Below are positions 7,852 to 32,810 of a DNA stretch of 33,203 bases, in pieces. The stretch lies in the IMG/VR virus record IMGVR_UViG_2049941000_000079, one strand, 5' to 3'. The first letter of the stretch is position 1, and every line of letters begins with the position of its first letter. The position numbers and the translations under genes are program-made. Under the pieces are notes generated by a model. It was not told the origin of the DNA, ran no database searches, and saw nothing but the letters and a program-made list of their open reading frames with translations. The stretch is from an uncultured virus (IMG/VR IMGVR_UViG_2049941000_000079). Lineage: Duplodnaviria; Heunggongvirae; Uroviricota; Caudoviricetes.

Positions 7852-7939
7852 AACGGGGATAGTGATTGCAACACGAAAGCGGAAAGCCTTATCCGTTTCC
7901 CCGTTTTGAACAAATAAGGCATTACCGAAAGGCGGGTAA
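7852..7939 (+). ncRNA. Candidate structured leader RNA (three-way junction, pseudoknot, RBS hairpin)
   Basis: Pairings read directly from the sequence (see findings); no family assigned. Confidence 0.5.
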
Positions 7940-28275: not shown

Positions 28276-28300
28276 GCAATCTCAATGAGGTTGCTTTTTT
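28274..28300 (+). terminator. Intrinsic terminator-like hairpin
   Basis: aagcaatctc-aat-gaggttgctt followed by a T run. Confidence 0.65.
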
Positions 28301-28305
28301 ATGCT

Positions 28306-28503
28306 ATGAAAGAATATACCAACACGGACATATCCAGAGTGATTGACGAGTACATTCACAATGAACGTGACAGACAAATTCTTAAAAGACGTTATATAGA
28401 CGGACGATACTATGAGCCGTTAGCAGAAGAATTTGATATGTCTGTATCGCAGATAAAGCGGATCATTTATCGAAACGAAAATAAGATATTCAAACACTTG
28501 TGA
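28306..28503 (+). CDS. Stand-alone sigma70 region 4-like HTH protein
   Basis: ERDRQILKRRYIDG..YE.LAEEFDMSVSQIKRII. Confidence 0.8.
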   Translation: MKEYTNTDISRVIDEYIHNERDRQILKRRYIDGRYYEPLAEEFDMSVSQIKRIIYRNENKIFKHL

Positions 28504-28567
28504 ACCAAAAGTGAACCGAAAGAAGTATGCAGAAGACCTCGCAAAAGCGGGGTCTTTTTTTTATGCT
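28500..28567 (+). promoter_or_regulatory. Tandem GTGAACCRAAA repeats, terminator-like hairpin and TATGCT
   Basis: Repeats at 28500 and 28511; stem aagacctcgc/gcggggtctt at 28533-28556; T run. Confidence 0.6.
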
Positions 28568-28582
28568 TAAAAGCAAGGGAGA

Positions 28583-28653
28583 GTGATAAAAATGGATTTG
28601 AAAAAGTTATGCGAAAAAGTATTAGAGAATGAGGAAGTAAAAGATATTCCTCT
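28583..28653 (+). CDS. 5' part of a small hypothetical gene (rest in gap; probably ends at 30556-30576)
   Basis: SD AAGGGAG; MDLKKLCEKVLENEEVKDIP. Confidence 0.5.
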
Positions 28654-29485
28654 NNNNNNNNNNNNNNNNNNNNNNNNNNNNNNNNNNNNNNNNNNNNNNN
28701 NNNNNNNNNNNNNNNNNNNNNNNNNNNNNNNNNNNNNNNNNNNNNNNNNNNNNNNNNNNNNNNNNNNNNNNNNNNNNNNNNNNNNNNNNNNNNNNNNNNN
28801 NNNNNNNNNNNNNNNNNNNNNNNNNNNNNNNNNNNNNNNNNNNNNNNNNNNNNNNNNNNNNNNNNNNNNNNNNNNNNNNNNNNNNNNNNNNNNNNNNNNN
28901 NNNNNNNNNNNNNNNNNNNNNNNNNNNNNNNNNNNNNNNNNNNNNNNNNNNNNNNNNNNNNNNNNNNNNNNNNNNNNNNNNNNNNNNNNNNNNNNNNNNN
29001 NNNNNNNNNNNNNNNNNNNNNNNNNNNNNNNNNNNNNNNNNNNNNNNNNNNNNNNNNNNNNNNNNNNNNNNNNNNNNNNNNNNNNNNNNNNNNNNNNNNN
29101 NNNNNNNNNNNNNNNNNNNNNNNNNNNNNNNNNNNNNNNNNNNNNNNNNNNNNNNNNNNNNNNNNNNNNNNNNNNNNNNNNNNNNNNNNNNNNNNNNNNN
29201 NNNNNNNNNNNNNNNNNNNNNNNNNNNNNNNNNNNNNNNNNNNNNNNNNNNNNNNNNNNNNNNNNNNNNNNNNNNNNNNNNNNNNNNNNNNNNNNNNNNN
29301 NNNNNNNNNNNNNNNNNNNNNNNNNNNNNNNNNNNNNNNNNNNNNNNNNNNNNNNNNNNNNNNNNNNNNNNNNNNNNNNNNNNNNNNNNNNNNNNNNNNN
29401 NNNNNNNNNNNNNNNNNNNNNNNNNNNNNNNNNNNNNNNNNNNNNNNNNNNNNNNNNNNNNNNNNNNNNNNNNNNNNNNNNNNNC

Positions 29486-29668
29486 CCCAACAAGGCGCAG
29501 TTCTTCTCGCAGAAGTTCAACGTAGCATTACCGCAGAACATAAACACCGGGTACGATGCCGTACAGTTTATGCTTAACAAAGGTATGCTCACGCAGGATC
29601 AGGTGAACAATGCTATGAAAATGAGCAATCATCCGTTGTTTCAAAGGTTTATAAATAGGGGGAAATAA
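29486..29668 (+). CDS. 3' part of a small Q/N/M-rich helical protein (5' part probably 31458-31510)
   Basis: PNKAQFFSQKFNVALPQNIN..YDAVQFMLNKGMLTQDQVNNA. Confidence 0.65.
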   Translation, partial: PNKAQFFSQKFNVALPQNINTGYDAVQFMLNKGMLTQDQVNNAMKMSNHPLFQRFINRGK

Positions 29669-29699
29669 CCCTTATTAAACAAAAACCGCTTTAATTTTG

Positions 29700-29767
29700 C
29701 TTAACTCAATCATTTTATCTCATATTTAACTCGGTTTAACTTAATTGTTGAGTTAAGAATGAGTTAA
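29700..29767. repeat. Cluster of TTAACTC/GAGTTAA direct and inverted repeats
   Basis: Copies at 29701, 29726, 29736 (variant), 29750 and 29761; 10-bp perfect inverted pair 29700-29709 / 29748-29757. Confidence 0.65.
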
Positions 29768-29865
29768 TTCAAGTTATTAAGGCAAGTGCGCATAGCCTTG
29801 ATATACGGACGGCACATAACGTGAGTGCCGCCCCTGACCTTATAAAAGTTGAAAGGAGAAAAGAA

Positions 29866-30244
29866 ATGGCTTTAGACAATGGAACAATGTATATGCCTGT
29901 TGCTCCTGCCTACAATGGCGGTGGTTTTGGCGGCATGGGAACTGATGGATGGTGGGTATTACTTCTGCTTCTTTTCGCAGGTGGCGGTTGGGGCATGAAT
30001 GGCTTCGGCGGCGGTATGTGGGGTATGGACGGACTCTACCCGTGGATGAATAACTCACAGAACATCAACAACGGCTTCCGCGATCAGATGCTTAATGACA
30101 ATATCACGTCTATTCGTGATGGAGTACAGGGCATTTCAACACAGCTTTGCAACGGCTTCGCTTCAATAGAGCAGGGCGCAAATGCAAGACAGATGGCAGA
30201 TATGCAACAGATGTTCTCGTTACAGAGCGCATTACAGCAGTGCT
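29866..30244 (+). CDS. Exon 1 of a Gly-rich membrane/coiled-coil protein interrupted by a group I intron
   Basis: SD GAAAGGAG; MALDNG...GWWVLLLLLFAGGGWG...LQQC. Sequence character changes abruptly at the predicted splice site. Confidence 0.8.
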
Positions 30245-30367
30245 TGAAGAAAATCTCTAATAGAGCCAAAGAGATTTTCGGCTTCATAAATTTTGAAACA
30301 GTAGGCACTTTAGCGGCGTAATCCGCTATGGCAATCGGGTGAATTGCTGGAAAACCTACGTCTACGC

Positions 30368-30420
30368 TTTACTTTCGCATTAAAATAATGTATAATTAGA
30401 TAAGAATATGCGGAGGTAAA
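30368..30420 (+). promoter_or_regulatory. Intron-internal promoter inside an RBS-sequestering hairpin
   Basis: TTTACT-17 bp-TATAAT (30368 and 30391); 13-bp stem 30368-30380 / 30408-30420 covers SD GGAGGT. Confidence 0.75.
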
Positions 30421-30424
30421 ATAT

Positions 30425-30545
30425 ATGTACTATGTTTATGAATGGTTTATTATTGAAACGGGAGAGATTATTTATGTAGGCAAGGGAACAAACCTTCGAT
30501 ATAAAGTCAGAAAGCATAATAAATTCTTTAATGAGATGATAAACC
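30425..30545 (+). CDS. GIY-YIG-type homing endonuclease, N-terminal part (not in ORF track)
   Basis: MYYVYEWFIIETGEIIYVGKGTNLRY (YVY...YVG.G...R). Confidence 0.85.
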
Positions 30546-30575
30546 NNNNNNNNNNATAACAGCGGAGTATGACTA

Positions 30576-30962
30576 ATGTTTAGTGAGTTGAATATTAACC
30601 CAGAAAAACGATTAGTGGGCGATTGTGTAATACGCGCAATCGGTGTAGTGACAGACAAGGATTGGGATGATGTGTACCTTGACCTTGCTTTACAGAAGGG
30701 ATTTGTAATGAAGCAAATGCCGTCTGAAAACAACGTATGGGGTTCATACTTACACGATCTTGGATTCAAACGTCACGTCATAGAGGACACTTGCCCTGAT
30801 TGTTATACAGTTAGGGATTTTGTGAGGGATCATCCGCAGGGAAGATATGTTTTAGGTACGGGAACACACGCAATCGGTGTTGTCGATGGTACATACTTTG
30901 ACACTACCGATACGGGTGATGAAGTACCGCAATACTACTTTGAAAAGGAGAACAAGCAATGA
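30576..30962 (+). CDS. Papain-like (C39-like) cysteine peptidase candidate
   Basis: GDCVIRAI (Cys), THAIGVVDG (His), YFDT.D (Asp). Confidence 0.65.
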   Translation: MFSELNINPEKRLVGDCVIRAIGVVTDKDWDDVYLDLALQKGFVMKQMPSENNVWGSYLHDLGFKRHVIEDTCPDCYTVRDFVRDHPQGRYVLGTGTHAIGVVDGTYFDTTDTGDEVPQYYFEKENKQ

Positions 30963-31456
30963 TTACACCTTATCCCATGTATCAGGGTTATCCGCAGTAC
31001 CCGGTACAGATGCCAACACAAAACAACGCATATCCAACGCAAATGAACGTTGCGCCAACACAACAAAACGTTAACGCGAACGTTGGAACACCGCAGATTC
31101 AGGACGGCGGCTTTGTCATTATACCTGATGAAAAGGATGTACTGACATATCCCGTACAGCCGGGGCATTGTGTGAGGTTTAAGGTTGTTGGAAAACCTAT
31201 CTACTTTGAGAAGACTGCAAGTTACTCACAGTTTGAAGACCCGAAGATTGATAGGTACAGACTCGTCAAGGAAGAAGACGAGAACGAACAGCCGAAACCG
31301 GGGATCACAAAAGAAGATTTTGACTCTGTAATGGATGAATTGGATTCTTTAAGATCGGACTTTGACGAGATAAGGGGTGATATCAATGCCCTTAAAGAAA
31401 CAAAGGATCAGTCCGTCAAGAAGACGGCAAGAAGACATACGGATGGAGATGATTGA
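30959..31456 (+). CDS. Hypothetical protein with Y/P/Q-rich N-terminus and C-terminal coiled coil
   Basis: SD AAGGAG; ATGA overlap. Confidence 0.75.
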   Translation: MITPYPMYQGYPQYPVQMPTQNNAYPTQMNVAPTQQNVNANVGTPQIQDGGFVIIPDEKDVLTYPVQPGHCVRFKVVGKPIYFEKTASYSQFEDPKIDRYRLVKEEDENEQPKPGITKEDFDSVMDELDSLRSDFDEIRGDINALKETKDQSVKKTARRHTDGDD

Positions 31457-31457
31457 T

Positions 31458-31510
31458 ATGGCAGGAAACATGAACGATTTTATGAACCTTTGTGATGAAA
31501 TGCTGAAAGC
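31458..31510 (+). CDS. 5' part of a small gene (probably joins 29486-29668)
   Basis: SD GGAG; MAGNMNDFMNLCDEMLK. Confidence 0.6.
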
Positions 31511-31521
31511 NNNNNNNNNNT

Positions 31522-31770
31522 GAGAATGAAGAGGACGCTTTTGCTTATGAGTATGATCGGGTCAAAGAGTTAAAAGAGCAAGGACAATGTGTCTGCAATA
31601 TTTATAATGGTGGTTCTGGTGGTACAACAGAATGGTGGACGAAAGATTTACGAAAGAGTTATTCAGAACACAATGTTATGAAGTCTGAAAAACAACGTCA
31701 AAGGATGTCTGCCAATAACCCCATGAAGGACAAAAACGTTTCCCGAAAAGTAGGGGAAAAGAAAAGTAGA
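31522..31770 (+). CDS. GIY-YIG endonuclease, continuation (not in ORF track)
   Basis: ENEEDAFAYEYDRVKELKEQGQCVCNIYNGGSGG (catalytic E helix and N...GG), then NUMOD-like RMSANNPMKD. Confidence 0.8.
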
Positions 31771-31803
31771 GNNNNNNNNNNTATATCATGCGTTATTTGA
31801 ACA

Positions 31804-31827
31804 CTATTAGAGCCATTACTAGAGCCA
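31804..31827. repeat. Candidate integrase arm-type sites (attP arm)
   Basis: ctattagagcca/ttactagagcca 12-bp tandem, immediately downstream of the int stop. Confidence 0.5.
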
Positions 31828-31829
31828 AA

Positions 31830-32810
31830 TCATATCTTGTTCAGGGCAATTTTTTTATCCTCAATGGTTATTTTGGTATAGACTTTAGACGTGACATCCG
31901 TACCTTTGTGTCCGACAATAGCCTTAATAATCCTATCATCGACCCCTGCTGAAACCAAAAGGCTTACAGTGGTGTATCTGGTACAATGCAAAGTGTGGTT
32001 GAATCCGTTCTTTTTTCTCCACATGGTAAAATAGTATTTCATGTTGGAATAATCATCGAAATGGGGTAATGGAAGAAGCGACTTTGCCTTATCAGACAAT
32101 GGTACTTCTCTTATCCCGGCTTTAGTCTTTGACTTTCTTACTGTCAAAACCATATTTTCACTTATATCTTCTTCACCGAGATTGCAAAATTCACCTGCAC
32201 GTAACCCGGTATATATCAAAAATAAGACAATTTTAGACATATTATCGCCTAATTGCCATATCTTTTCTATTTCTTCATCTGAAAACCTATCCCTATCAAG
32301 TTTCTTGACCTCAATATTACTTGAAAGATCAATATAATCAAGAATGGCTATACGTTCCGGCTGAACAATGTCGTATCGAATTGCGTGTCCGTATATCTGT
32401 TTCAATGCAGACTTCACCTTCTGTTTTACTTGTGAGGACACTTTAAGTTCATCAAAGTATAGTTGCAAGTCCTTCCTGCTTAATTCTGCAATAGGCTTGT
32501 CGTGTATCGGTGTGAGATGATCCCATGCTATTTCAAGATTGTGTATTGTTTTTGGCTGATGATTCTCAATATAATGTTCCTTAAACTTCAAATAGACCGA
32601 TTCAAGACTATCACGTTCAAGAGAATACGGGGATTTGTTATAGTCCATTAAGGCTGTCATAGCTTCTGCTTTTGTGCGGTAGTAACCGATATAGCGGTAG
32701 ATAGGATAACCGCGCAAGTCAAAACCTACGGTTTTACGTGCAACCCAAGGATGACGGCGGTTGCCTTGCTTCTTATATACGCTACCTTCTCCGTTACCCA
32801 GACGGCTCAT
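31830..32810 (-). CDS. int: Tyrosine integrase
   Basis: NGEGSVYK arm-binding N-terminus; YTGLRAGE (R), KSKT (K), HCTR (HxxR), IVGH, VY (Tyr). Confidence 0.93.
   Translation of the reverse strand: MSRLGNGEGSVYKKQGNRRHPWVARKTVGFDLRGYPIYRYIGYYRTKAEAMTALMDYNKSPYSLERDSLESVYLKFKEHYIENHQPKTIHNLEIAWDHLTPIHDKPIAELSRKDLQLYFDELKVSSQVKQKVKSALKQIYGHAIRYDIVQPERIAILDYIDLSSNIEVKKLDRDRFSDEEIEKIWQLGDNMSKIVLFLIYTGLRAGEFCNLGEEDISENMVLTVRKSKTKAGIREVPLSDKAKSLLPLPHFDDYSNMKYYFTMWRKKNGFNHTLHCTRYTTVSLLVSAGVDDRIIKAIVGHKGTDVTSKVYTKITIEDKKIALNKI

Follow-up and report, generated by a model that had tools for sequence, protein, structure and literature searches.

The window analysed here (33,203 nucleotides; all its features given below lie on the + strand) holds the 5' part of what appears to be a mobile group I intron of subgroup IA architecture, with a GIY-YIG endonuclease in P5, at the second codon of a Cys-Cys-Cys (CCC) cluster in a phage gene. 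Judging from sequence comparison, we consider it practically certain that the intron is real. Its 5' end is very probably constrained as protein as well: the unspliced product would carry an intron-coded C-terminal tail of 25 residues (30244-30321, ...FETVGTLAA and stop). We lean, with some confidence, towards a dual-coding 5' end, by which splicing or retention would pick either a full-length fibre-like protein or a membrane-targeted, protease-tagged short form, as an intron-encoded degron or an isoform switch.

The intron and its host gene

Exon 1 (29866-30244, PHROG 16490) codes for a Gly-rich N-terminus, a hydrophobic helix, a Q/N-rich helix and the first Cys of CCC. A sequence-only reading had proposed a group I intron behind it from the motifs AGTGCT, GGCACT, ACAGT, TAGCGG/CCGCTA and TCGGGTGAATTGCTGGAAA, all of which were found where it had placed them. 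Exonic AGTGCT (30239-30244; motif, fold, relatives, covariation) forms the 5' strand of P1 and GGCACT (30304-30309; motif, relatives) its 3' strand, with the 5' splice site after U30244, which pairs with G30304; the same U.G pair is present in all 49 complete relatives described below, and P1 has two-sided changes. The P1 loop of 59 nt (30245-30303) forms an RNA hairpin at 30249-30279 (stem 30249-30258/30270-30279) and also codes for the amphipathic helix LKKISNRAKEIFGF. ACAGT (30298-30302; motif, relatives, covariation) is the P10 part of the internal guide sequence. The P2 hairpin TAGCGG/CCGCTA (30311-30328) provides the terminal LAA of the tail from its 5' arm and the in-frame stop TAA (30319-30321) from its loop, and the P3 5' strand with the P element / P4 5' strand follows at 30335-30353 (relatives, covariation), TCGGGTGAATTGCTGGAAA starting at 30335. 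For 30239-30332 the predicted fold comprises P1, the loop hairpin and P2 (z = -2.7), and the extra hairpin that had been seen in the P1 loop reached z = -2.1 alone. The proposed intron, with its 5' splice site, P1, P2, P3, P4 and P10, was borne out by this fold, by the 49 relatives and by covariation.

Motif scans yielded 6, 34 and 50 viral, 14 metagenome and 12 genome loci (the sets overlap). From 116 loci and the window we parsed 115 loci, after dropping two (L141 and L142) with the 5' part missing; these represent 50 distinct 5' ends and 49 distinct complete introns at one common codon position. All 49 have a terminal G and splice in silico to Cys-Cys-Cys, the joint that had been predicted, and in 48 of them exon 2 has an open frame of 52-155 codons. 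The exception, L069, has a stop two codons inside exon 2 and a broken endonuclease, and is a probable pseudogene. In L141, intron sequence is present from P8 onwards only and follows unrelated coding sequence, this being a rearranged or truncated copy. The genome loci with the intron are mostly gut Bacillota bins. Another unannotated gene has a tandem pair of related group I introns (L177 1845-2627; RF00028 32 and 77 bits).

The core P3-P4-P6-P7-P8 with its P, Q, R and S elements was found in the relatives. The Rfam group I model RF00028 matched all eight ORF-less copies at 68-102 bits (cut-off 50) and gave 36-43 bits on ORF-bearing copies. The group I model scan that had been suggested for the window succeeded in these relatives but returned no match in the window itself, because the 3' core is absent from its assembly: only P3 5' and P are present, and neither exon 2 nor Q, R or S was found elsewhere in the window. 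The Q/R/S core, terminal G and exon 2 of the window allele are presumed here on the pattern of its relatives. In a P1-P10 model of 10 ORF-less copies, which was built from one member and hence leans toward that member, 97.5% of cells were paired and 30 of 63 pairs had changed two-sidedly; none of 500 shuffles reached this covariation, and slid partners gave at most 8 pairs. A covarying stem (helix 9) lies between P7 and P3' of the relatives, P7.1, whose nested shape presumably resembles that of subgroup IA1.

The variable P10 pair among the 49 introns is A-T (22), G-C (17), G-T (7), A-C (2) or C-C (1). The guide of the window has A, whose partner is T in 22 of the 24 introns with A at this place, and exon 2 is therefore predicted to start with GCTGT, with a chance of about 22 in 24. 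Covariation in the relatives supports this part of the earlier prediction, while the window's own exon 2 is missing.

A gene without any intron was also weighed, that is, a gene with a frameshift or truncation and a free-standing endonuclease behind it, or else an assembly chimera. The 15 gaps of the window and the absent Rfam intron match would fit such a view, which is refuted by the complete copies, the contig joins (below), covariation and the RF00028 scores. Also against it stand the isolated phage CPQ4 (MZ401006; L173 2110-3140), which has the same intron, 1,030 bases long and unannotated, with exon 2 uncalled, and phage XP41-N3 (L176 3830-4465), which has a near-identical gene without the intron, the twin of the CPQ4 allele. 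We regard this explanation as extremely improbable. The RNA run X16 held intron-less relatives only, with no spliced joint seen, and is uninformative either way.

In the 56 viral loci that encode the host protein, its gene is uninterrupted in 54 and split by the intron in 2. CCC is present in 51 of the 54, as had been expected for intron-less homologues, and residues C126-C128 are conserved in at least 90% of 96 sequences, in agreement with the proposed conservation of the Cys cluster. The protein is about 250-290 residues long, and all 8,000 scored candidates of the host family matched. It had been placed outside the usual classes of phage intron hosts, and so it was found: it belongs to PHROG 16490, searches of Pfam, NCBIfam and PDB gave no match, and Atlas returned hypothetical viral clusters only. 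The description as a Gly-rich membrane protein stood for the Gly-rich N-terminus; the membrane part is suggested by a single hydrophobic helix of 10 residues, which precedes long helices containing CCC in AlphaFold models of low confidence (pLDDT 52 and 54). The gene lies in a conserved cluster, and the next gene (L007 6081-6545) is BclA_C/C1q/needle-knob-like (Atlas 0.88-0.91, a lead only); one distant homologue is labelled 'Outer capsid/viral fiber', an automatic lead only. The products of this cluster of uncharacterised genes may form a structure like a fibre or a spore coat, and a fibre-like oligomer is our guess for the host protein.

Gene order and the intron endonuclease

The scaffold carries tailed-phage genes (portal, capsid, tail, amidase, integrase), its N gaps number 15 in the window, and the runs with window contigs are bovine gut metagenomes. 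Over 28300-32100, contigs join 28653 to 30556 (X3) and 31510 back to 29485 (X1 and X3; X5 to within 5 bases). Contigs of X1, X3 and X5 link 30545 to 31521 through a further 34 bases. This 34-base join is also present in the independent contig L108, which is 98% identical to the window over the intron. The pieces of the scaffold stand in the wrong order: 30545 leads on to 31521, and therefore the intron continues at 31521-31771. The misplaced contig 30556-31510, which carries two genes and the beginning of another, lies outside the intron and has its true place upstream of 29485, according to contig joins and to synteny in L007 and L033; the 831-N gap at 28654-29484 is where it belongs. Other 10-N gaps of the window may be misordered as well. 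A record of X3 (1,347 bases) goes 702 bases further, about full-intron length, complete ORF-bearing relatives being 910-1,296 bases long. Elsewhere in the window, the Rfam int-alpA RNA matched at 7852-7919 with 37.1 bits (gathering score 35.8).

Codons 1-40 of a GIY-YIG homing endonuclease inserted in the P5 extension (30425-30545) are continued, 34 nt after 30545, by 83 codons displaced by the scaffold (31521-31771). These two pieces are 74% and 65% identical to the ORF of L007, and the endonuclease of L007 and L033 matched PHROG 314 at E 5e-20 and NUMOD1 above cut-off. On the 40-residue window piece the Pfam GIY-YIG model gave only 19.3 bits against 22.6. In viral contigs, the endonuclease DNA of the window had 0 exact matches; L108 stops before the intron core. 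The ORF is placed between P and Q, and its end is usually inside P7/P7.1. At the same site in L172, the GIY-YIG gene is replaced by a different ORF, which we take from its motif to be LAGLIDADG-like, and the P6 region is altered; we read this as a second endonuclease invasion.

In front of the ORF (30368-30420), a sigma-70-type promoter-like site, TTTACT-17-TATAAT (30368-30396), lies within a 13-bp hairpin (30368-30380/30408-30420) over the SD GGAGGT (30412-30417). The promoter motif occurs in 24 of 44 copies, TTTACT-17-TATAAT alone being at chance level, and the SD is paired by the hairpin in 30 of 44. The endonuclease would be silent on the long transcript and translatable from the internal promoter, whose transcript, without the SD-blocking arm, would be translated; by cutting intron-less alleles the enzyme would then spread the intron. 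The endonuclease, the promoter-like site, the SD hairpin and the misorder had no place in the sequence-only reading.

The intron-coded tail

By the statistics of the distinct copies, the tail is read in the frame of the exon and constrained as protein, with a cationic amphipathic helix, which is optional, and a non-polar C-terminal end. P1 loops are 11, 26, 42, 50, 53, 56, 59, 68 or 71 nt long, and the length is 2 mod 3 in 49 of the 50 distinct 5' ends, spread over 8 lengths, so that exon 1 reads through the guide to the stop in P2. Loop length has changed at least 8 times, and 19 times by parsimony on a tree of 46 3' cores (L172 left out), a count that recombination between 5' and 3' parts could inflate. 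In non-coding segments of the same introns, lengths differ by single bases and every length class is present. Long loops are free of stops in 41 of 41 cases, each with an expected chance of 0.21-0.26, and fold as RNA hairpins (z -2.3 on average, with 24 of 41 below -2). Across about 15 divergent loop lineages they code for hydrophobic residues at 1, 4, 5, 8, 11 and 12 with Lys/Arg between. The helix moment is 0.68, compared with 0.44 in other frames and 0.38 in hairpin-preserving shuffles (41 of 41 above this null), and the periodicity spectrum of the loop-coded peptide peaks at 100 degrees. In 22 copies of the 59-base class, whose pairs are not independent, pN/pS was 0.49-0.55, compared with 0.87-1.03 and 0.59-0.70 in the other frames; the latter range weakens the frame contrast. 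The helix is absent in 7 of 50 copies, where the tail has 8-9 residues. Because the copies share ancestry, p-values overstate independence.

A constraint on RNA and ribosome only could leave the frame and the K/F pattern as by-products of a rule that translation must stop before the core, combined with a hairpin of A-rich and U-rich arms. It is a general rule that such introns have an in-frame stop in P1 or P2 (PMC2504315, PMC3984707), the loop is indeed a genuine hairpin by the mean z given above, and the other shifted frame would enter the core in 43 of 50 copies. However, a loop-internal stop or the +1 frame, which would stop before P3 in 49 of 50 too, would satisfy the rule, yet no long loop has a stop and 0 of 50 copies use +1. 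Moreover, the moment exceeds the hairpin-preserving null in every long loop, and the stops in print are mostly within 27 nt, whereas here the stop is 75 nt in. This explanation is rather unlikely. The residues after LQQC had been taken for intron read-through; read-through they are, but not junk, given the protein-level constraint.

The last residue of the tail in the 50 distinct copies is A in 44, G in 5 and V in 1, mostly as -AA, and the 16 different sense codons that occur in the P2 arm are non-polar without exception. We searched proteins with exon 1 only, the tail being omitted from the query and size limited to 59-189 residues. By pattern, the tail is present in 93 of the best 120 (of 1,150) short homologues, 92 of them in frame with the guide motif; 60 of the 70 distinct tails in these best 120 end in A, the exceptions being LVE, YAQ and G ends; a tail ending in CTA also departs from the usual pattern. 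Homologues ending in LKKISNRAKE-like sequence had been expected to speak against an intron. Such ends were found in those 93, because they carry the same intron, and this argument would have misled. The frame-breaking copies L165 and CPQ4 both end in LVA. For comparison, Ala is the last residue of 18% of 429 background ORFs, a figure that includes spurious frames and is indicative only. The ending is partly RNA-driven, since the GNRA-type loop of P2 fixes the stop after an NNG codon and its GC-rich stem favours Ala. Ala-ended read-through as a general trait of group I introns was unsupported: related introns in other genes have it at only 3 of 12 sites (JCL1032 left out), two of these being VA. 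Related introns in a tape-measure gene (L186 206-883) and in thyX (L192 1069-1518) have read-through ends -LVA and -FVA.

The tmRNA tags of five intron-bearing genomes all end in AA (YAA, LAA, MAA, LAA, VAA). Like the tmRNA (SsrA) tag, which ends in LAA with LVA as a used variant (PMC9382460), the coded tail is short, non-polar and C-terminal on an incomplete protein, and ends in LAA/AA or LVA. Unlike that tag, it is coded in cis by the intron, with no trans-translation, and its body is basic, often after an amphipathic helix, whereas the SsrA body is acidic; degradation of the tailed product is putative.

By established group I chemistry, GTP-initiated splicing would restore a protein of about 260 residues. 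Unspliced message would yield its N-terminal half, which could act as a poison when the full-length coiled-coil protein assembles. The terminal residues -LAA/-CAA/-YA/-LVA may mimic the tmRNA tag (for ClpXP, FtsH or a tail-specific protease), and the helix, as a later addition, would keep this end at the membrane beside the hydrophobic N-terminal segment. We give slightly better than an even chance to the retained tail being a built-in disposal signal on the short product. Against this it can be said that a degron needs no amphipathic helix. In a two-isoform switch, retention would instead give a stable functional short form held on the membrane by the helix and splicing the long fibre-like form with CCC, the intron being a partly domesticated regulator. 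In favour of such a switch, the 1-4-5-8-11-12 pattern is kept over the 15 divergent lineages and the tail in copies that lost the endonuclease, and the intron is common, to judge from the tail in 93 of the best 120 short homologues. On the other hand, 54 of 56 loci lack the intron and hence the short form, 7 of 50 copies have a tail of only 8-9 residues, and the non-polar AA end suggests instability. We hold the switch to be a tentative possibility.

Relation to known introns and meaning

The element is of a known kind, at a new site. Like T4 td with I-TevI (PMC3073962), it has a predicted self-splicing core, an in-frame stop before the core and a hairpin over the ribosome-binding site of the endonuclease, and the 3' end of its GIY-YIG ORF overlaps the core, there P6a/P7. 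Unlike in td, the ORF is in an extension of P5 and not in P6, also spans Q/P4'/P6, and has a putative sigma-70-type internal promoter. According to PMC8565351, td stops at the first intron codon, whereas the intron studied here adds 8-29 conserved residues. The nearest nucleotide matches are IA-type introns of Firmicutes phages and prophages (tape measure, terminase, tail tube, DNA polymerase, nrdEF; PMC2504315 and PMC11878797): an ORF-less copy best matched a Clostridium tape-measure intron (77% over 45% of the query) and an S. thermophilus terminase. Among annotated nucleotide records, none covers 80% of the ORF-less query. With these introns it probably shares the extra stem between P7 and P3'; unlike them, it sits in PHROG 16490, a host gene of no Pfam or NCBIfam family, the phage hosts named in PMC11878797 including DNA polymerase, terminase, thymidylate synthase and ribonucleotide reductase. 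In the literature covered, which included few subscription papers, we found no report of the site, nor any of a coded tail that is conserved or of a degron or helix encoded by an intron, and no dual-coding 5' end; the supplementary table of known phage introns of PMC11878797 may bear on the novelty of the site.

The site is a widespread, unannotated one in a very large gene family of gut phages, whose split alleles are called as short hypothetical proteins. It bears on the means by which self-splicing introns keep their burden small in protein genes with coupled transcription and translation; here, what becomes of the truncated product seems itself to be under selection. If true, this would be a natural counterpart to engineered intron/degron switches, of which the reverse design is proposed in PMC8565351.
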